DNA of 62,822 bases, from NCBI GenBank assembly GCA_964635565.1, contig CAZWON010000007.1, forward strand, positions 1-62,822, read 5' to 3'. Numbering within the stretch: position 1 is the first letter of the stretch; the number at the start of each line of letters is the position of its first letter. The position numbers and the translations under genes are program-made. Positions 12,660 through 62,822 of this stretch are shown here, in pieces. The notes below the pieces were generated by a model. It saw only the letters and a list, made by a program, of their open reading frames with translations, made no database searches and was not told where the DNA came from. Source of the DNA: an uncultured Planctomycetia bacterium (GTDB taxonomy: Bacteria > Omnitrophota > Gorgyraeia > Duberdicusellales > 4484-171).

Positions 12660-13509
12660 TACTCACAAAGGAGATTACGGACACGTATTAGTAATTGGAG
12701 GAAGCTGTGGCCTTACAGGGGCTGTATGTTTATGTGCCCAGGCAGCTTTAAGAAGTGGTTGTGGTCTGGTTACTGTAGGAGTTCCTTCTTCTTTAAACAA
12801 TATTTTTGAAGTTAAACTTACAGAAGTAATGAGTTTACCCCTTAAGGAGACTTCTCAGCGCACCCTTTCTTTAAGCGCCTTTAAAATAATTAAGCAGTTT
12901 TCTTTGAAAGTAGATGTAATAATTGCTGGTTGTGGAGCATCTTGTAATGTTTCTACTAAGAAATTAATAGTAAAGATATTAAGAGAGATAAATAAACCTT
13001 TAGTTGTGGATGCTGATGGAATAAATGCCTTTGTGGGAGATTTAGAGACGTTAAGAAGGAGAGTGTTTCGAGATGTTATTTTTACTCCACATATGGGAGA
13101 ATTTTCCCGCCTTATTAATAAAAGTATTGATTATATTAGGAAAAAGAGAAAAAGGCTTGCCAAAGAATTTGCTCTTCGGTATAATTTAATCCTTGTATTA
13201 AAGGGTTGCCGTACTATTATCACTGATGGCAAAAGATTTATTGAAAATACAACAGGAAATCCTGGTATGGCTACTGCAGGTAGTGGTGATGTATTGAGTG
13301 GAATAATCAGTGGTTTGATGGCTCAGGGATTAAGCGGTTTTGAATCAGCTAAGTTAGGTGTTTATCTGCATGGTTTAGCAGGAGATTTAGCAGTAAGAGA
13401 TATTACCCAAGTTTCTTTAGTAGCATCTGATATTATAAAGTATTTACCATTAGCTGTAAAAAAATCTAAGCGCCCAGGTAGCTCAATCGGCAGAGCAGGG
13501 GTTTTGTAA
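12613..13509 (+). CDS. nnrD: ADP-dependent NAD(P)H-hydrate dehydratase (stand-alone NnrD; start 12613 or 12622)
   Basis: HKGDYG, VVDADG, TPHMGEF, GNPGMATAGSGDVL; no epimerase domain; 3' end overlaps tRNA-Thr. Confidence 0.92.
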   Translation: MRIMLLPAQLQKRKSDTHKGDYGHVLVIGGSCGLTGAVCLCAQAALRSGCGLVTVGVPSSLNNIFEVKLTEVMSLPLKETSQRTLSLSAFKIIKQFSLKVDVIIAGCGASCNVSTKKLIVKILREINKPLVVDADGINAFVGDLETLRRRVFRDVIFTPHMGEFSRLINKSIDYIRKKRKRLAKEFALRYNLILVLKGCRTIITDGKRFIENTTGNPGMATAGSGDVLSGIISGLMAQGLSGFESAKLGVYLHGLAGDLAVRDITQVSLVASDIIKYLPLAVKKSKRPGSSIGRAGVL

Positions 13510-13544
13510 ACCTCAGGTTGGAGGTTCGATTCCTCTCCTGGGCT
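13472..13544 (+). tRNA. tRNA-Thr(TGT)
   Basis: Acceptor GCCCAGG/CCTGGGC; anticodon arm GGGGT-TT-TGT-AA-ACCTC; TTCGATT loop; no encoded CCA. Confidence 0.95.
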
Positions 13545-13638
13545 TATTTAGACACAGAGGGTTAGTAATTTTTGGTAGATTACGTAATTTAGTTGTCTGT
13601 TACAATCTATTTCCGATGTATTATTAATCTGTATAAAT

Positions 13639-13721
13639 GGGCAGGTACCCTAGTGGACAACGGGGGCAGACTGTAAATCTGCTGCGCTTGCGCTTCGGAG
13701 GTTCGAATCCTCCCCTGCCCA
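13639..13721 (+). tRNA. tRNA-Tyr(GTA)
   Basis: Acceptor GGGCAGG/CCTGCCC; GCAGA-CT-GTA-AA-TCTGC; long variable arm. Confidence 0.95.
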
Positions 13722-13826
13722 CTGTTTTTGGTACCTAATAGTTTAGAGGGAATGCAGAGAATTTTAGCTTATCTTGTAGATGATAACTGTCTTTTTATTC
13801 TAGTGGTTAAGACAGTTTATTAAGTT

Positions 13827-14054
13827 GTGGAAGAAAATAGAAAGTTAAAATTTATAAAAGTAATTAGTGTAAATAATGTAGGAACTCTTTCTTTCATAAA
13901 ATCTCTTTTAGAAGATAAAGATATTCCTTACTATATTACTAATGAAAATTTTTCTGTTTTTTATGGGGGAGCAGACGGATTGACGCGGATGGATATAATG
14001 GTAAGAGAAGATAAGCTAAGAGAGACAAAAGATATTCTAAAAGGATTTATATAA
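13827..14054 (+). CDS. DUF2007-like putative signal-transducing protein
   Basis: IKSLLEDKDIPY...IMVREDKLRETKDIL pattern. Confidence 0.7.
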   Translation: MEENRKLKFIKVISVNNVGTLSFIKSLLEDKDIPYYITNENFSVFYGGADGLTRMDIMVREDKLRETKDILKGFI

Positions 14055-14066
14055 GAGAGATTATTT

Positions 14067-14140
14067 GCGGGCGTAGTTCAATGGTAGAACACAGGCCTTC
14101 CAAGCCTGATATGACGGTTCGATTCCGTTCGCCCGCTCCA
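14067..14140 (+). tRNA. tRNA-Gly(TCC)
   Basis: Acceptor GCGGGCG/CGCCCGC; CAGGC-CT-TCC-AA-GCCTG; encoded CCA. Confidence 0.96.
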
Positions 14141-30905: not shown

Positions 30906-30982
30906 GGGCCCGTAGCTCAGCTGGTTAGAGCAGTTGACTCATAATCAATTGGTCCGGGGTTCGAATCCCTGCGGGCCCACCA
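30906..30982 (+). tRNA. tRNA with CAT anticodon, probably Ile2 (lysidine)
   Basis: GGGCCCG/CGGGCCC acceptor, GTTGA-CT-CAT-AA-TCAAT, CCA encoded; C4:G69 and C5:G68 pairs are TilS determinants; G1:C72 excludes initiator Met. Confidence 0.9.
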
Positions 30983-30983
30983 G

Positions 30984-31018
30984 ATAGCTAATAGTTCGTA
31001 GCTCATGGCTGATAATAT
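30984..31018 (+). repeat. Heptamer tandem array ATAGNNN-type
   Basis: ATAGCTA ATAGTTC GTAGCTC ATGGCTG ATAATAT. Confidence 0.7.
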
Positions 31019-31044
31019 ATAAATTATTTTGTTCGAGCGATAGG

Positions 31045-31086
31045 CTAAATACTATTCGCTAATCGCTATTCGCTAAGTGCTAAAAT
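31045..31086 (-). repeat. Heptamer tandem array, inverted relative to 30984-31018
   Basis: CTAAATA CTATTCG CTAATCG CTATTCG CTAAGTG CTAAAAT on + strand. Confidence 0.85.
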
Positions 31087-31102
31087 TCGCAAAGCGAATT
31101 TT
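31082..31102. repeat. Perfect palindrome/hairpin immediately before tRNA-Val
   Basis: AAAATTCGC-AAA-GCGAATTTT. Confidence 0.8.
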
Positions 31103-31103
31103 T

Positions 31104-31177
31104 GGGCGATTAGCTCAGCTGGTTAGAGCGCTACGCTCACATCGTAGAGGTCACAGGTTCAAATCCTGTATCGCCCA
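31104..31177 (+). tRNA. tRNA-Val(CAC)
   Basis: GGGCGAT/ATCGCCC; CTACG-CT-CAC-AT-CGTAG; no CCA. Confidence 0.95.
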
Positions 31178-31297
31178 TATTTTATGATAAAAATAGGTAA
31201 AAAGATATTTTAGATTGATGAGAGTAGTTAATATTTTCCTAATAAAATATGGGGACTCCTAAAATAATGGAAGATTATCTGTTGTATATAAAAAATA

Positions 31298-53083: not shown

Positions 53084-53491
53084 ATGAGAACAGTTGAGGT
53101 CGTTGCTGCTTTAATTATTGATAAAAATAAAGTTTGTATATGTCAACGCAAAGAAAAAGATTCGTTCTCTTTGCTTTGGGAATTTCCAGGAGGAAGAATT
53201 GAAGCAAAAGAGACATTGAGTGGTGCCATTAAGCGGGAGATAAAAGAAGAGCTCGGTTTAGAAATTGAGCCCATAAAGATTATAGGGAATTTCAAAGATA
53301 CTATTTCTAAACTTACGATAAATGTCCATCTTTTTTTGTGTCGTATTGTTAAGGGAAAGCCTTTGCCTCTTGAATGCGCGGATGTGCGTTTTGTAAGTAT
53401 TGATGAGCTAAGTAAATTTTCTTTAGCTCCTGTGGATAAGAAAATAGCTACTTACTTAAATAATCATAAGGATTTGTTATCTTCTATGTGA
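53084..53491 (+). CDS. Nudix hydrolase (MutT/NudG type)
   Basis: WEFPGGRIEAKETLSGAIKREIKEELG. Confidence 0.92.
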   Translation: MRTVEVVAALIIDKNKVCICQRKEKDSFSLLWEFPGGRIEAKETLSGAIKREIKEELGLEIEPIKIIGNFKDTISKLTINVHLFLCRIVKGKPLPLECADVRFVSIDELSKFSLAPVDKKIATYLNNHKDLLSSM

Positions 53492-54135
53492 TGGCGTATA
53501 TCCTTTCCTTTTACAATATAGTAAACATCCTCAGCAATATTTGTTGCATGGTCGGCAATACGTTCTAAATAACGTGCTACAAGAATGAGTTTTATTGCCC
53601 GATTGATATTTTTAGGGTCCTGAAGCATATAGGTAAGTAGCTCGCGAAAAATTTGGTCATTTAAATTATCTACAATATCATCAGTTGAACATACTTTCCG
53701 GGAAGCTTCTGCATCTTTATTAAGGAAGGCCTTTAAGGTATTATCGAGCATCTCCTGAGCAATCTCAGCCATACGGGGAAGGTCAATGAGGGGTTTTAAT
53801 GGAGGCTCTTTAAGAAGTTCTTTTGAGCGTTCTACAATATTTACTGCTAAGTCTGCCATACGTTCTAATTCTGAGTTTATTTTCATTACAGAAACAATAA
53901 GACGCAAATCGCTTGCTGCTGGTTGACGTAAAGCAATCAATTTTAAAGCTTCATCGTCAATTTCAATCTGTGCCATATTTATTTTCTCTTCCGATTCAAG
54001 GACAAAATCCATAAGCTCTTCTTTTCGTTCTTTTAAGGCACAGATAGAGGTAGAGATCATCTCTCGTACAAGGTTCGCAGTACGGGTAAGTTTTTTCTTA
54101 AGTTCTGTTAATTCTTCATCAAAATGGCGATCCAT
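53464..54135 (-). CDS. phoU: Phosphate signalling protein PhoU (start moved to ATG 54135)
   Basis: ELERMAD, LERIADHATNI; SD AGGAGGA upstream of MDRHF. Confidence 0.95.
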   Translation of the reverse strand: MDRHFDEELTELKKKLTRTANLVREMISTSICALKERKEELMDFVLESEEKINMAQIEIDDEALKLIALRQPAASDLRLIVSVMKINSELERMADLAVNIVERSKELLKEPPLKPLIDLPRMAEIAQEMLDNTLKAFLNKDAEASRKVCSTDDIVDNLNDQIFRELLTYMLQDPKNINRAIKLILVARYLERIADHATNIAEDVYYIVKGKDIRHHIEDNKSL

Positions 54136-54154
54136 AATTTTCCTCCTTTTAATA

Positions 54155-54922
54155 TTATCCAAATCTTCCTGTAATATAATTTTCTGTTCGATCATCAGAA
54201 GGATTAGTAAATATTTTTTTTGTACGAGCAAATTCAACAAGTTCACCTAAAAGCATAAATCCACACCAATAAGATACTCTTGCTGCTTGCTGCATATTAT
54301 GGGTTACAATAACAATTGTATAATCTTTTTTTAAGACTTGCAATAATTCTTCTATTTTTGTTGTAGAAATAGGGTCTAAAGTTGAACAAGGTTCATCTAA
54401 GAGGATAATATTTGGTTTTAAAATAATAACACGAGCAATACATAAACGCTGTTGTTGTTCTAAGGTTAACGCGCGGGCATTTTTAGTATGCAGATTATCT
54501 TTTAACTCATCCCATAGTCCTACATCTTTCAGTGATTTTTCAATAACTTTTTCTACCTCACGGCGTTCCTTAATAAGACGGTGTATCTTTATTCCGAAAT
54601 TAAGATTGTCGTAAATCGAAGCATTAAAAACATTGGGGCGCTGAAAAACCATACCTACATTGCGCCTTAGTTGGATAAGGTTGGTATTTTCACTTAGGAT
54701 ATTTTCTCCTTCAATAATTACTCTTCCTTCTATTTTTACATTTTCAATTAAATCATTCATTCGGTTGAAACAGCGAAGTAACGTTGATTTTCCGCAGCCT
54801 GACGGCCCAATAATAGCTGTAATTTCTTGAGAGGGTATAGAAATATTTATATTTTTTAGAGCATGGAAGTTACCATAGTATAAGTTTAAATTTTCTGTTT
54901 TTATTTTTTGATTAATCTTCAT
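54155..54922 (-). CDS. pstB: Phosphate ABC ATPase, intact Walker A/Q/B/H, degenerate signature
   Basis: GPSGCGKST, VFQRP, LLDEP, VTHN; signature LTLEQ. Confidence 0.93.
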   Translation of the reverse strand: MKINQKIKTENLNLYYGNFHALKNINISIPSQEITAIIGPSGCGKSTLLRCFNRMNDLIENVKIEGRVIIEGENILSENTNLIQLRRNVGMVFQRPNVFNASIYDNLNFGIKIHRLIKERREVEKVIEKSLKDVGLWDELKDNLHTKNARALTLEQQQRLCIARVIILKPNIILLDEPCSTLDPISTTKIEELLQVLKKDYTIVIVTHNMQQAARVSYWCGFMLLGELVEFARTKKIFTNPSDDRTENYITGRFG

Positions 54923-54924
54923 AG

Positions 54925-55677
54925 TTATCCGAACTTACCCCTTATATAATCATCAGTACGTTTATCCTTAGGAGAGGTAAATAAAGTAGAGGTTTTATCT
55001 ATTTCGATGAGTTCACCCATGAGAAAAAAAGAGCATCTTTCTGTTACTCGTGCTGCTTGTTTAGTATTGTTAGTAACAAGAATTTGAGTATAGTGCTGTT
55101 TTAATTCCTGCATTGCTTCTTCTATTTTTGCTGTAGAAATAGGGTCTAAGCCTGAACAGGGTTCATCATAAAGAATAATATCGGGTTGTACAGCAAGTGT
55201 ACGGGCGATACAGAGACGTTGTTGTTGACCTCCAGAAAGTTTTAATGCAGGCGAATGTAATCGGTCTTTGACTTCATCCCATAGATATGCTCGTTTAAGA
55301 GATATTTCCACAAGTTCATCCAATATGCTTTTTTTGCGTATCCCATGGACTTTTGGTCCATAGGCAATGTTGTTGTAAATACTCATAGGTAATACCTGAG
55401 GTAAAGCAAAAATAATTCCGATTTTTTTTCGTAGCTCATTATCACTCAATTCAGCAATATTCTTTCCTAAAAAATATATCTCACCTTCTTGAAAGTAATT
55501 GGGTTTTAAATAATTAAGACGGTTTAAGGCGCAAAGAAACGTTGTCTTACCACTGTTAGCAGGGCCGATTATACCTAAAATCTCTTTAGGAAAAACTTCT
55601 ATATTGAGATTCTTTAATACACAATTATTGTCAAAATAGGCAGATAAGTTTTTTGTCTCAATAATTATTTGCATCAC
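54925..55677 (-). CDS. pstB: Phosphate ABC ATPase, intact signature, degenerate Walker A/Q/H
   Basis: GPANSGKTT, IFALP, LSGGQ, LYDEP, VTNN. Confidence 0.9.
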   Translation of the reverse strand: MMQIIIETKNLSAYFDNNCVLKNLNIEVFPKEILGIIGPANSGKTTFLCALNRLNYLKPNYFQEGEIYFLGKNIAELSDNELRKKIGIIFALPQVLPMSIYNNIAYGPKVHGIRKKSILDELVEISLKRAYLWDEVKDRLHSPALKLSGGQQQRLCIARTLAVQPDIILYDEPCSGLDPISTAKIEEAMQELKQHYTQILVTNNTKQAARVTERCSFFLMGELIEIDKTSTLFTSPKDKRTDDYIRGKFG

Positions 55678-55683
55678 AATTTA

Positions 55684-56532
55684 TTACCATTGTTTCTTTT
55701 TACGGAAATGTACCCGTAGCACGATACTTATAAGATTTATTAAGAAGACTAATATAATAAGGACAAAAGCAGTGGCAAAACTTATCTGCAGAGGCATATT
55801 GGGTACTTGTGTTGAGATAACGTAAAGATGATATGGTAAAGCCATGGCCTGATCAAATATTGACCGAGGTAAGCGGGGAAGATAAAAAGCTGCCACAGTA
55901 AAAAGGATAGGGGCGGTTTCTCCTGCAGCTCGACTTAAGCTTAATACTGTTCCTGTAAGAATTCCTGGTAAAGCATAAGGGAGTACACAATAACGGATTG
56001 TCTGCCATTTTGTTGCTCCTAAGGATAGGCTTATTTCTCTAAAAGAATAGGGAACTGCTTCTAATGCCTCTTTGGTTGCAGTAACAATTACGGGCAAACT
56101 CATAATGGCAAGTGTTAATGATCCTGCCAGAATTGATGTACCAAATTGCATAAAGATGACAAAAAGAGCAAAGCCAAATAGACCGTAGACAATTGAAGGA
56201 ATGCCAGAAAGATTGACAATGGATAGCTTAATAAGGCGAGTAAAAAAGTTATCTTTTGCATATTCTACAAGATATATAGCAGAGAGTATACCCACAGGAA
56301 GAGAAAAAATCATTGTTCCTACAATAAGATAGATTGTTCCTATAATAGCAGGTAGAATTCCTCCTTCTTTCATTCCATTACGGGGGTACTGGCTTATAAA
56401 TTCCCAAGTAATTGTTCCTATACTGTTTTTGGCAACATAGAATATAGTAAGAAAAATAGGGAGGATAACAAAAAAAGTAATTATACCCAAAATTATAAAA
56501 GCAACCTTTTCTCTTGTAGTTGGCGATTTCAT
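55684..56532 (-). CDS. pstA: Phosphate ABC permease
   Basis: LSGIPSIVYG, RAAGETAP. Confidence 0.95.
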   Translation of the reverse strand: MKSPTTREKVAFIILGIITFFVILPIFLTIFYVAKNSIGTITWEFISQYPRNGMKEGGILPAIIGTIYLIVGTMIFSLPVGILSAIYLVEYAKDNFFTRLIKLSIVNLSGIPSIVYGLFGFALFVIFMQFGTSILAGSLTLAIMSLPVIVTATKEALEAVPYSFREISLSLGATKWQTIRYCVLPYALPGILTGTVLSLSRAAGETAPILFTVAAFYLPRLPRSIFDQAMALPYHLYVISTQVPNMPLQISFATAFVLIILVFLINLISIVLRVHFRKKKQW

Positions 56533-57401
56533 TGCTTCCCTCTTTGTAAGGATAAATCAGCAAGAAAGTTTATGATAAAAGTGATAATAAAAAGAACAAG
56601 ACCCACAGCAAAGAGAGCAAAGTAATGTTCACTTCCCGAAACTGTTTCTCCCATTTCTCCTGCCACCGTTGCAGTAAGTGTCCGTAAAGGTTGAAAAATA
56701 GAGCGGGGGATAACGGGAGAATTACCTGTAACCATCATTACTACCATTGTTTCTCCAATGACCCGACCTATTCCTAGCATTATAGCAGCAATTATTCCTG
56801 AAGAGGCAGAAGGAAGAACTATACGCCAGAGGGTTTGCCAGCGTGTTGCTCCTAAACCAAAAGCAGCTTCTTTGTAAGAACGGGGTACACTGACAAGAGC
56901 ATCTTCCGAGATACTGATTATAGTAGGTAGCGCCATAAATGCAAGAAGCAGGCTTCCTGTTAACCCACACATTCCTGTGGATAAACCTAAAGCATTTTTT
57001 AAGAATGGCCCCAGCCAGACAATTCCAATAAATCCCAATACAACACTAGGTATAGAAGCAAGAATTTCTACTAATGATTTCAAGATTATCCGCAAATAAG
57101 AGGGGGCAACCTCAGCAATAAACATTGCTACAGCAATCCCTGTGGGGACACAAATAAGTATTGCTACAAGAGTTACATAAAGAGAACCTATTACTAAAGG
57201 AATAATACCAAATTGAGATGGTTCAGAGATAGGAAGCCAGTTCTTGCCAAAAAAGAAATTTTTTAAAGAGTAAGTGCGAAAGAGGGAAAGAGAGTCTTTG
57301 AGAAGAAAGAGAAAGATTAGAACAACAAAACCAATTATAAGCGCTCCACTTGTGTGGATTAGAAATTCGATAACGAATTCCTTAGTTTTCTTCAGACGCA
57401 T
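56529..57401 (-). CDS. pstC: Phosphate ABC permease
   Basis: LASIPSVVLG, GRVIGETM. Confidence 0.95.
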   Translation of the reverse strand: MRLKKTKEFVIEFLIHTSGALIIGFVVLIFLFLLKDSLSLFRTYSLKNFFFGKNWLPISEPSQFGIIPLVIGSLYVTLVAILICVPTGIAVAMFIAEVAPSYLRIILKSLVEILASIPSVVLGFIGIVWLGPFLKNALGLSTGMCGLTGSLLLAFMALPTIISISEDALVSVPRSYKEAAFGLGATRWQTLWRIVLPSASSGIIAAIMLGIGRVIGETMVVMMVTGNSPVIPRSIFQPLRTLTATVAGEMGETVSGSEHYFALFAVGLVLFIITFIINFLADLSLQRGKQ

Positions 57402-58284
57402 TTTCCTCTCTTATAGGGACAAATCCTGTCTCTTGAAAAACACGTTGGCCTTGGGGAGAATATACATAATCAATAAAAAGCTTTATTACTCCTTTTGGTT
57501 CACCATTAGTATACATCTGTAAAGGACGTGAGAGAATATACTTTCCTTTTGCAACATATTTTACAGTAGGAGGATAGAACTTATTATCTTTACCTATTTT
57601 TACTGCTTTTACGCGGTCACAGATATATCCCATACCAAGGTAGCCGATAGCATTTTCGTTGTTTACAACTTCTTCTACAATTGATTGGGAGGAGGAAAGA
57701 AGAAGAGTTTGTGGAGAAAACTCTTCTTTACTATTTTTATTTTCAAGTTGAATAACTTTTTCCTTAAAGTACATATGAGTTCCTGAGCTTACTTCTCGTG
57801 ACAAAGTTACAATTTTCCCCTCTTTCCCACCTATTTCTTTCCAGTTGGTAATCTTTCCTGTGAATATATCGTGGAGTTGGTCAATCGTAAATGTGTCTAT
57901 AGGATTATTTTTATTGACAATCACTGCCACACCATCATAGGCAACAACAAATTCTTTCGGAGTAATACCTCTTTTTTTAGCTATTTCAATTTCTTTTTTC
58001 TTCATCTTTCTTGAAGCATTGGCAATATCACACGTACTATTAATTAGAGATGCGATACCTACACCACTGCCTCCACCAGTAACGGCAACAAAGACATAGG
58101 GATATTCTTTCATAAAATTTTCGGCAAGTTTTTGCGCTGCATTAACAATTGTATCTGACCCTTTAATTTGAATGAAACCGCTTGGTCCTTTATGGGTTTT
58201 TTCTGAGGATACGCAAGAAAAAACAAATAATAAGAAAAGATAAAAGAAGATATTATTTATTTTTATATTTTTTATGCTCAACAT
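57382..58284 (-). CDS. pstS: Phosphate-binding lipoprotein
   Basis: GSDT, GGGSGVG, ASR, SREVSSGT; lipobox-like VFSC. Confidence 0.94.
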   Translation of the reverse strand: MLSIKNIKINNIFFYLFLLFVFSCVSSEKTHKGPSGFIQIKGSDTIVNAAQKLAENFMKEYPYVFVAVTGGGSGVGIASLINSTCDIANASRKMKKKEIEIAKKRGITPKEFVVAYDGVAVIVNKNNPIDTFTIDQLHDIFTGKITNWKEIGGKEGKIVTLSREVSSGTHMYFKEKVIQLENKNSKEEFSPQTLLLSSSQSIVEEVVNNENAIGYLGMGYICDRVKAVKIGKDNKFYPPTVKYVAKGKYILSRPLQMYTNGEPKGVIKLFIDYVYSPQGQRVFQETGFVPIREENASEEN

Positions 58285-60806: not shown

Positions 60807-60888
60807 GCGCGGGTGGCGGAACTGGCAGACGCGCTAGATTCAGGTTCTAGTGGGTAATACCGTGCGGGTTCAACTCCCGCCCCGCGCA
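60807..60888 (+). tRNA. tRNA-Leu(CAG)
   Basis: GCGCGGG/CCCGCGC; CTAGA-TT-CAG-GT-TCTAG; variable arm. Confidence 0.95.
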
Positions 60889-61021
60889 TTTATATAAGAT
60901 TAAAGAGGCCAATTTTGAATTTTAAAGAGATATTATTTTAGAATTATGGTATATGGCCTTGACTTCTTTGATAATCTTACGAACGTAGTGCGAGAAGGGT
61001 CATAGCCCTATGATGTATTCC

Positions 61022-61111
61022 GGAGAGGTGCCTGAGTTTGGCTTAAAGGGACGGTCTCGAAAACCGTTGTACCTTTTAAAGGTACCCTGGGTTCAAATCC
61101 CAGCCTCTCCG
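61022..61111 (+). tRNA. tRNA-Ser(CGA)
   Basis: GGAGAGG/CCTCTCC; ACGGT-CT-CGA-AA-ACCGT; long variable arm; G discriminator. Confidence 0.95.
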
Positions 61112-61229
61112 TGTTATACTATCATTTTAAGGTAAGGATACAAAAGAGAGACTAAGGGATAAAGAGAGCCTAATACATTTTTGGATGCACTATAAAAAAA
61201 GATATCTGGCTTACGCCAGATAGTGCATA

Positions 61230-61247
61230 CAAATCCCAGCCTCTCCG
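61230..61247 (+). repeat. 18-bp direct repeat of the tRNA-Ser 3' end (att-like)
   Basis: CAAATCCCAGCCTCTCCG identical to 61094-61111. Confidence 0.9.
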
Positions 61248-61292
61248 CTTGATATTTATCTAAAAATGCAAGATAAGTAAATAGGATAAAAA

Positions 61293-62237
61293 ATGGTAAC
61301 AATATTTTTAGCTATTATAAAGTTATTTTTTATAATCTTTTTAGGTTTCTATCTCTATCGCCGAAAGGTATTAAAAGAGGAGGCTTTAAGTTTTATAACA
61401 ACATTTGTTATAAATATTAGTATACCTTCTTTGGTATTTTCAAATATAATTACTCATTTCCAACCAGATAAATTACCCTCCCCCTTAATATTTATTGGCT
61501 TAAGCATAGGGATATTTTTGTTAGGATTTATATTGGGTGTATTTTTTTCCTTTAAAATCCCTCAATCAATACGTAGAGAATTCATCACCTTAACAAGTTT
61601 TCAAAATTGTGGATATTTGCCGATGAATATTGCGGTTTTTCTCTTGTCTTCTCCTTTAAGAGAAACATTCCTTACGTATATTTTTCTTTATATACTGGGA
61701 TTTAATATTCTTATGTGGTCAATAGGGACATTTTTAATATTTAAAAGAAAAGAGGAAACTTTTAAGATGACATCAATGTTTACTCCTCCAATTTTAAGCA
61801 CAATCATTTCTTTAGGTATTGTATATTTAGGCTTAAAAGAAGCTATTCCTTCTATTATCCTTTCTCCTTTAAAGGCAATAGGGGAAACAAGTTTTGTTCT
61901 TTCCATGATAATTTTAGGAGCGTGGCTGGCAAAAAGCAGGGCAAAAACTTACCTTTACTCTTTGAGTGTATGGAGAGTAGCTATAGTAAAACTTGTTCTT
62001 TTACCTGCTGTTATGTTTACAATCATTATTCGTAATAATTTATTTTCTTTAATAGGAATGTTTATTATTTTAGAATCAAGTATGCCTTCAGCTGCTTCGT
62101 TACCTATTGTTGTTAGTTTAAGAGGGGGAGATAGTAAGTTTATCTCTTGCGGTGTGTTTCTAACACATATACTTGGTGTCGTAACAGTACCTTTTTGGAT
62201 AGAATTATTTTTGAGAATATCTAATTTAAAAATTTAA
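61293..62237 (+). CDS. AEC (auxin efflux carrier) family transporter
   Basis: PSLVFS, FQNCGYLP, PPILS, MPSAAS; ~10 TM helices. Confidence 0.88.
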   Translation: MVTIFLAIIKLFFIIFLGFYLYRRKVLKEEALSFITTFVINISIPSLVFSNIITHFQPDKLPSPLIFIGLSIGIFLLGFILGVFFSFKIPQSIRREFITLTSFQNCGYLPMNIAVFLLSSPLRETFLTYIFLYILGFNILMWSIGTFLIFKRKEETFKMTSMFTPPILSTIISLGIVYLGLKEAIPSIILSPLKAIGETSFVLSMIILGAWLAKSRAKTYLYSLSVWRVAIVKLVLLPAVMFTIIIRNNLFSLIGMFIILESSMPSAASLPIVVSLRGGDSKFISCGVFLTHILGVVTVPFWIELFLRISNLKI

Positions 62238-62240
62238 GGA

Positions 62241-62699
62241 ATGAGAATAGTATCTACAAACCGAAAAGCGAAGTATAATTATAATATTTTAGAAACCTTT
62301 GAAGTGGGAATAGAATTAAAAGGTATGGAAGTAAAATCATTACGCCAGAAAGGATGTTCTTTAGAAGGAGCATTTGGCAGAGTTGAGCAAGGGGAGGTTA
62401 TTCTTTATAATATGAATATTCCTGAGTTTGATAAGTCTTCCTATTTTAAAGTTGATTCTCGTCGTCCTCGTAAACTTCTCCTTCACAAAAGAGAAATTAA
62501 AAAACTTATTGGTACAACTACACAGAAAGGCTTAACATTAATTCCTTTAAAAGTGTATTTTAACGAGAGAGGGTGGGCAAAAGTAGAAATTGCTTTAGCG
62601 AGAGGAAAAAGAGCATATGATAAAAGAAGAAAAATAAAAGAGGAAATAGAAAAAAAAGAAGCACAGCGCATCTTAAAAAGATACAGTAAAAGATATTGA
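62241..62699 (+). CDS. smpB: SsrA-binding protein
   Basis: NRKAKYNY, GIELKGMEVKS, RKLLLHKREI, GKRAYDKR. Confidence 0.97.
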   Translation: MRIVSTNRKAKYNYNILETFEVGIELKGMEVKSLRQKGCSLEGAFGRVEQGEVILYNMNIPEFDKSSYFKVDSRRPRKLLLHKREIKKLIGTTTQKGLTLIPLKVYFNERGWAKVEIALARGKRAYDKRRKIKEEIEKKEAQRILKRYSKRY

Positions 62700-62723
62700 A
62701 TAAATTAACTGTTAGTGTATAAT
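62696..62723 (+). promoter_or_regulatory. tRNA-Lys promoter
   Basis: TTGAAT (62696-701), 16 nt, TATAAT (62718-23). Confidence 0.6.
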
Positions 62724-62749
62724 TTTATTTTCTGTTTATTAACTTGTAC

Positions 62750-62822
62750 GGGCCGCTGGCTCAACTGGCAGAGCAACGGACTCTTAATCCGTCGGTTGCA
62801 GGTTCAAGTCCTGCGCGGCCCA
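62750..62822 (+). tRNA. tRNA-Lys(CTT), ending at the window edge
   Basis: GGGCCGC/GCGGCCC; ACGGA-CT-CTT-AA-TCCGT; GCAGG-TTCAAGT-CCTGC. Confidence 0.95.

Follow-up and report, generated by a model that had tools for sequence, protein, structure and literature searches.

Can an ATP-binding cassette (ABC) importer run on a single catalytic site, with its second site given over to something other than hydrolysis? The question is raised by a phosphate uptake (pst) operon on contig CAZWON010000007.1 of assembly GCA_964635565.1, from an uncultured Planctomycetia bacterium assigned by GTDB to the Omnitrophota. Within the 62,822 nucleotides analysed (hereafter the window), this operon holds two adjacent genes, pstB-A and pstB-B, that encode PstB-type nucleotide-binding domains (NBDs) whose catalytic motifs depart from the consensus in reciprocal fashion. 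In ABC dimers the NBDs lie head-to-tail, with the Walker A, Q-loop, Walker B and H-loop of one facing the signature of its partner. Because this geometry sets the PstB-A core against the PstB-B signature, all of the changes fall in one pocket: the deviant set (Walker A, Q-loop and H-loop of PstB-A, signature of PstB-B) belongs to the same composite site and the consensus motifs all meet in the other, while neither homodimer would have a consensus site, just as the original prediction, drawn from the DNA sequence, had argued. We consider it likely, from these motifs and their conservation, that PstB-A and PstB-B form an obligate heterodimeric motor in which one site is a consensus ATPase and the other, degenerate, probably still takes up ATP but turns over very little of it. 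How much ATP is spent per substrate by ABC importers, and whether both of their sites are needed, are still unsettled matters, the histidine permease needing one active site and the maltose transporter two (PMC3971661).

The two genes and the catalytic motifs of their products are as follows.

54925-55677, minus strand: pstB-A, a PstB paralogue of 250 residues counted from GTG 55677 (gene callers choose ATG 55674, giving 249 residues).
55540-55566, minus strand: PstB-A Walker A, GPANSGKTT, with G>N and C>S and with Lys and Thr kept.
55399-55413, minus strand: PstB-A Q-loop, IFALP, with Q>A and with the adjacent R>L and F>L also fixed.
55225-55239, minus strand: PstB-A signature, LSGGQ, intact.
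55159-55176, minus strand: PstB-A Walker B, ILYDEP.
55144-55155, minus strand: PstB-A D-loop, SGLD.
55066-55077, minus strand: PstB-A H-loop, VTNN, with H>N.
54155-54922, minus strand: pstB-B, a PstB paralogue of 255 residues whose catalytic core is canonical and whose signature is degenerate.
54782-54808, minus strand: PstB-B Walker A, GPSGCGKST, canonical.
54635-54649, minus strand: PstB-B Q-loop, VFQRP, canonical.
54455-54469, minus strand: PstB-B signature, LTLEQ, with GG>LE, facing the PstB-A Walker A.
54389-54403, minus strand: PstB-B Walker B, LLDEP.
54374-54385, minus strand: PstB-B D-loop, STLD.
54296-54307, minus strand: PstB-B H-loop, VTHN, canonical.

Translation of the minus strand, which the original prediction left unmentioned, gives exactly the two proteins and motifs that it described, with LTLEQ at precisely the position it had reported; the plus-strand translation of the region is full of stops. 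The PstB-A Walker A, listed in that prediction with the deviant motifs, is indeed altered but is not broken, as it still matches GxxxxGK[ST]. Site 1, made up of the PstB-A Walker A, Q-loop, Walker B and H-loop with the PstB-B LTLEQ, keeps its nucleotide-binding elements (the A-loop aromatic, Lys and Thr of the P-loop, and Asp-Glu of Walker B) and has lost Gln from the Q-loop, His from the H-loop and both glycines from the signature. Because the elements for binding are kept and the catalytic Gln and His are lost together with the signature glycines, this site would be expected to bind ATP and to hydrolyse it very slowly or not at all, and its role would probably be that of a permanently occupied hinge or an allosteric site, as in Pdr5 and TM287/288. 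The original prediction had suggested regulation, contact with PhoU or energy saving as possible roles of such a site. Site 2, which would combine the same four elements of PstB-B with the PstB-A LSGGQ, has the full consensus and would hydrolyse the ATP that powers every transport cycle, at a presumed cost of one ATP per cycle. The pair would sit as an obligate heterodimer on the PstC/PstA permease, a pairing that adjacency, reciprocity and the 2-nucleotide junction between the pstB-A stop codon and the pstB-B ATG point to. An A2 homodimer, without Gln and His at both sites, and a B2 homodimer, without the signature glycines at both, would each miss key residues at both sites and for that reason neither is expected to work.

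The same division of motifs recurs far beyond the window. Among the 120 closest homologues of PstB-A, which share 71-86% identity with it and come from metagenome-assembled genomes (MAGs) labelled Omnitrophota, Sedimentisphaerales and Planctomycetota, all retain GP[AS]NSGK, VTNN and [LI]SGGQ and none has the Q-loop glutamine, 119 reading F[AS][LM]P there and the other FELP. For PstB-B, the 120 nearest homologues all carry GPSGCGKST, VFQRP and VTHN with an L-x-L-[ED]-Q signature. When each clade is compared with canonical PstB column by column, the B clade has changed at essentially no position outside the glycine pair of the signature, where L has replaced the first in 99% and E the second in 100%. 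The A clade, in the same comparison, has G>N (N41, 98%) and C>S (S42, 100%) in its Walker A, a Q-loop remodelled to F-A-L-P-x-P-L-P through Q>A (A91, 100%), R/K>L and F>L, an H-loop with H>N (N203, 100%) and with Q>K three residues further on (K206, 98%), and SGLD as its D-loop (99%). Its Walker A Lys and Walker B D-E are both retained in 100%, the P-loop Thr is also kept, and an A-loop aromatic (F or Y) is present in 79 of 80 A sequences. As the replacement residues are themselves near-invariant, these alignments indicate a constrained new state or role, not relaxed selection or simple loss.

Whether the two sets of substitutions go together was followed in two collections of related loci (labelled by L-numbers), one chosen through each protein. 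Scanning species-representative genomes with PstB-A gave 80 loci from 80 species, in MAGs labelled Planctomycetota, Omnitrophota, Elusimicrobia, Saganbacteria/Margulisiibacteriota, Bacteroidota, Verrucomicrobiota, Krumholzibacteriia and others. All 81 A-type proteins of this sample have Q>A, H>N, LSGGQ and the Walker B D-E, and in every complete B partner the Walker A, Q-loop and H-loop are canonical and the signature, save for one LSGEQ, has the form L[ST]LE[QS]; the gene order is pstS-pstC-pstA-A-B wherever the genes are visible, and in most loci B is followed, among pst-related genes, by phoU. Scanning metagenomes with PstB-B gave another 80 loci, a mixture of B-type and ordinary PstBs. Where the upstream neighbour is visible in this second sample, each PstB with an acidic non-GG signature follows an NBD that combines LSGGQ and SGLD with Q>A and H>N (17/17) and no canonical PstB follows any NBD (0/52, of which 49 follow a permease), a difference with a Fisher p of 1.7e-16 that is not corrected for phylogeny. 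The reciprocal co-occurrence that the original prediction had named as a check is thus complete in the first sample, for complete partners, and equally clear in the second, and on this ground a chance origin of the motif pattern was rejected. An internal control is provided by 11 loci of the first sample (L025, L029, L031, L046, L054, L056, L067, L071, L073, L078 and L079), in which a second operon, pstC-pstA-single pstB and often phoU, lies immediately upstream of the A/B operon, in the upstream 0-3 kb of the locus, and encodes a single, fully canonical PstB with LSGGQ, Q and H intact. These 11 genomes keep a two-site and, as read from the motifs, a one-site Pst system side by side.

Two observations stand apart from this pattern. 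In L018, L040 and L052 the A/B operon is found in MAGs labelled Paceibacterota, Patescibacteria and Micrarchaeia (an archaeon), with two of the three contigs shorter than 3 kb and proteins 61-70% identical to those of the window; mis-binning seems likelier than true presence in those groups. In L084 (477-1322) an unpaired single pstB stands right after pstA, its product having LSVGQ as signature and a helical subdomain lengthened by some 30 inserted residues, which is a different kind of deviation from that of the A/B pair.

Degenerate motifs in a tandem pair could also mark one copy as a decaying duplicate on its way to a pseudogene, and one figure agrees with this: NCBIfam TIGR00972 is the top match for both proteins, and while PstB-B scores 362.7 bits against it, above the cutoff, PstB-A reaches 319 bits, below the curated cutoff of 343, and is the sole Pst product of the operon to do so. 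The two copies are nonetheless equally conserved, with mean pairwise identities over the same 72 genomes of 0.658 for A and 0.654 for B, and in genomes with a canonical paralogue the identities of A and B are 0.69 and 0.71 as against 0.66 for the canonical protein. Since synonymous sites are saturated between the window and its nearest relatives, ratios of nonsynonymous to synonymous substitution rates (dN/dS) were taken from six pairs of closer loci, where they are 0.016-0.085 for A, 0.033-0.131 for B and 0.029-0.060 for pstA; by this measure both pstB genes are under purifying selection. No locus has a broken reading frame, the altered residues do not vary across several phyla, and an AlphaFold2 monomer model of PstB-A has a confident fold (predicted local distance difference test 86.4, predicted template modelling score 0.86), its best match in the PDB being E. 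coli PstB (9k3x_C, template modelling score 0.89). Pseudogenisation was accordingly rejected at the sequence level, and we regard its probability as negligible. The original prediction was to be abandoned should the substitutions prove unconserved or come with general decay of one copy; the substitutions are kept across phyla, and the identities and the dN/dS range of 0.016-0.131 reveal no decay in either.

A search of 1.84 billion cluster representatives, among which the main A clade falls into few clusters at 50% identity, extends the pair to deeper lineages, with A-like proteins carrying GPAG[SAG]GKT, VF[AS][TV]P and VTNN, and B-like ones LSAEQ or LTEEQ. The pairing holds in these lineages wherever contigs are readable, as in the following loci.

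L081 (69% GC): A-like protein with GPAGGGKTS, VFATP and VTNN; partner with LPLEQ.
L083: upstream fragment with VTNN; partner with LSAEQ.
L093, L111 and L159: A-like proteins with the H-loop VSNN; partners with LSEEx.
Other metagenome loci: A-like proteins with Q>A, H>N and SGLD; partners with LSPEQ or LPLDQ.

Among 120 homologues of the L081 A-like protein, Q>A is found in 120 and H>N in 118, and one of them belongs to a cultured myxobacterium with a complete genome, Sorangium sp. So ce260 (CP150320.1, near 9.952-9.954 Mb). There the order is pstS, a fused pstC-pstA, the A-like gene, its B-like partner and phoU, the PstC-PstA fusion (locus L166, 4220-6004) being 594 residues long and upstream of the pair; the A-like protein has GPSGSGKTT, VFATP and VTNN and the partner has the signature LTSEQ. 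The near-universal core of the pair, on the sequences gathered here, consists of two changes in A, Q>A and H>N, and one in B, where signature position 4 is acidic. All A-like sequences fall in one bipartition of a neighbour-joining tree and all B-like sequences in another, which is consistent with one origin for each paralogue in a single old duplication. A search for A-B fusion proteins among the long representatives found none, the long proteins consisting of one NBD with other extensions. Two loci may be evolutionary intermediates, a possibility raised by their motifs: L097 (3774-4565) has an A-like gene with Q>D and the H-loop His kept (VFDLP, VPHN), its partner lying off the contig, and L085 has an upstream NBD fragment (1-390) with VPHS and SGLD followed by a partner (393-1160) with LSLGQ, in which the first Gly alone is changed.

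Outside the core, position 4 of the A Walker A (55555-55557 in the window) and position 3 of the B signature (54461-54463) shift together by lineage, N being found with L, R with P, and G with E, P, S or G. The two positions lie opposite one another in the degenerate pocket and may co-evolve, on a small sample that is confounded by phylogeny. Their covariation, together with the invariance of the substituted residues, which show no free drift, would also suit a repurposed site 1, that is, a newly evolved regulatory pocket to which PstB-A would contribute its invariant Asn residues and Ala, and PstB-B the invariant acidic residue of its signature, which might mimic or replace the gamma-phosphate. 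Such a pocket would sense a ligand (the ATP/ADP ratio or another nucleotide, inorganic phosphate (Pi), or pyrophosphate) or dock PhoU, and so gate transport or Pho signalling. PhoU contact has some attraction here, as phoU follows B in most loci and E. coli PhoU is reported to contact PstB, in work cited in PMC12976172. No sequence feature, however, links PhoU or any ligand to site 1, phoU is equally frequent after canonical single-pstB operons, and invariant replacements are equally expected for a tight non-hydrolytic ATP site, so we hold this reading to be unlikely. Were it true, the pocket would couple Pi uptake and Pho signalling to the energy state of the cell, and a type I ABC importer would here carry its own allosteric sensor of nucleotides.

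Several considerations weigh against a heterodimer with one hydrolysing site. Its support is at the level of sequence, with a monomer model of PstB-A, and the co-occurrence statistics ignore shared ancestry. PstB-A keeps the catalytic Walker B Glu that is lost in most characterised degenerate sites, and slow hydrolysis at site 1 is therefore conceivable. The acidic residue at signature position 4 also resembles the CFTR mutation G551D; by analogy, it might block closure on ATP, in which case site 1 would hold ADP or be empty. Lastly, PstB homodimers can evidently work where their motifs are intact, because in E. faecalis an excess of PstB2 alone is enough and replaces PstB1 (PMC12096839). From this, and from the homodimeric state of E. 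coli PstB (PMC12976172), it might be supposed that PstB-A and PstB-B do not pair at all and instead form separate homodimers for different states or complexes, for instance a B2 that is a weak motor and an A2 with a regulatory role. As set out above, each homodimer would miss key residues at both of its sites, A2 the Q-loop Gln and H-loop His and B2 the signature glycines; neither the strict reciprocity nor the 2-nucleotide junction nor the two-way complete co-occurrence would be accounted for; and the same genomes hold a separate canonical pstB to meet any need for a homodimeric motor. Separate homodimers accordingly strike us as very improbable, and considerably more so than a regulatory site 1.

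If PstB-A and PstB-B do form a heterodimer with one consensus site, the nearest point of reference is E. coli PstSCAB, in which two identical PstB subunits bind two ATP (cryo-electron microscopy structures 9k3x and 9k3s; PMC12976172). The window operon shares the content and order of E. coli PstSCAB-PhoU and would likewise encode an ABC importer of type I built around a PstC/PstA heterodimer, and both of its NBDs are PstB homologues, PstB-B being the better sequence match (E = 1e-87). Unlike the E. coli transporter, with its identical PstBs and two consensus sites, it has two different PstBs that would form one consensus and one degenerate site. Tandem pairs are known in Firmicutes, as PstB1/PstB2 of E. 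faecalis, where both copies have the same canonical motifs (PMC12096839), and PstBA/PstBB of B. subtilis (PMC11466899). Pairs designated pstB/pstB' are also known from cyanobacteria. Like those of PstB1/PstB2, the window genes are adjacent, lie between pstA and phoU and encode copies that appear functionally non-equivalent, but the window pair is reciprocally degenerate, leaving neither homodimer with a consensus site, whereas both Enterococcus copies are canonical; equivalence with the Firmicute pair was rejected on this difference in motifs.

The closest likeness in motifs lies with yeast Pdr5, whose degenerate site, with an LNVEQ signature and a substituted H-loop, binds ATP without hydrolysing it (PMC8421411, PMC7756269). 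As in NBS1 of Pdr5 (and of Cdr1), a single composite site gathers all the deviations, another residue stands in for the H-loop His, and the partner signature reads L-x-hydrophobic-E-Q (LNVEQ in Pdr5, L[ST]LEQ here). Unlike the window proteins, Pdr5 is a eukaryotic full-length exporter of another fold class, and the Walker A Lys and Walker B Glu that are lost there are kept here. In Pdr5, changes equivalent to a restoration of symmetry abolished function. The resemblance looks convergent, without homology at the subfamily level, and the L-x-x-E-Q signature looks to have arisen independently in fungal pleiotropic drug resistance (PDR) pumps and in these bacterial importers. Its appearance in both points to a structural answer of general use wherever an ATP site is to be kept from hydrolysing.

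A layout of one consensus and one degenerate site is frequent in exporters (PMC3971661), and two different NBDs form such sites in TM287/288, TAP1/2, BmrCD and CFTR much as is proposed for the window pair. Those four differ in being type I (type IV fold) exporters that usually lack the Walker B Glu and whose signature changes are not acidic. The original prediction was right to invoke exporters as precedent but omitted one among importers, that of RbsA and NupO, which belong to the CUT2 family. In these fused importer ATPases, classed as type II and serving sugars and nucleosides, two NBDs form one degenerate site (PMC11466899). There, unlike here, the NBDs are joined in one polypeptide and the second Walker A Lys is lost, whereas the window pair belongs to a type I importer, has two separate NBD subunits and retains its P-loop Lys intact. 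The layout as such is therefore known, and what appears new is its occurrence in a type I, split-subunit phosphate importer, of which no description was found. The literature searched contained no account of a degenerate PstB pair, and the one study of tandem pstB genes found in it reports the same canonical motifs in both E. faecalis copies (PMC12096839), which agrees with the statement in the original prediction that the layout was not known for Pst importers; most subscription journals lie outside this coverage, and absence from it is not proof.

Seen against the unsettled cost of ABC import, the A/B family would be a natural type I importer that has apparently settled on one catalytic site, and it is widespread, strongly conserved and built on two separate subunits. 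Genomes that carry the A/B operon beside a canonical two-site Pst system offer a built-in comparison, and the presence of the pair in a cultured Sorangium makes stoichiometry, energy cost and regulation directly testable. For annotation there is a practical side as well, both genes now being named merely as phosphate ABC transporter ATP-binding protein.

The pair belongs to a single unit on the minus strand, the pst operon at 53464-58284, with the order pstS-pstC-pstA-pstB(A)-pstB(B)-phoU; it is the only pst operon inside the window, whose GC content is 32.8%. The two PstB proteins are 48% identical to each other, and the remaining genes are these.

57382-58284, minus strand: pstS, periplasmic phosphate-binding protein of 300 residues (TIGR02136, 258.8 bits, above the cutoff).
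56529-57401, minus strand: pstC, permease of 290 residues (TIGR02138, 286.7 bits), with the EAA loop KEAAFGLGATRWQT.
55684-56532, minus strand: pstA, permease of 282 residues (TIGR00974, 285.8 bits), with the EAA loop REISLSLGATKWQT.
53464-54135, minus strand: phoU (TIGR02135, 221 bits), the listed open reading frame (ORF) reaching 54246.

Phosphate as the substrate is suggested by the homology of PstS, PstC and PstA, and wherever a related locus shows that region, the operon opens with pstS. As listed, from GTG 54246, the phoU ORF would overlap the end of pstB-B by 92 nucleotides; its true start is probably ATG 54135, because the TIGR02135 match begins at residue 41 of the ORF and AAGGAGG stands 8 nucleotides upstream of this ATG. 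The EAA loops of PstC and PstA differ slightly between A/B-type and canonical operons of the same loci (in PstA, REVSLSLG versus REASLALG), too little to indicate which NBD docks on which permease. A promoter and terminator scan across the pst operon gave no signal over background. Elsewhere in the window, eight tRNA genes lie in three clusters, for Thr, Tyr and Gly at 13472-14140, for Met and Val at 30906-31178, and for Leu, Ser and Lys at 60807-62822.

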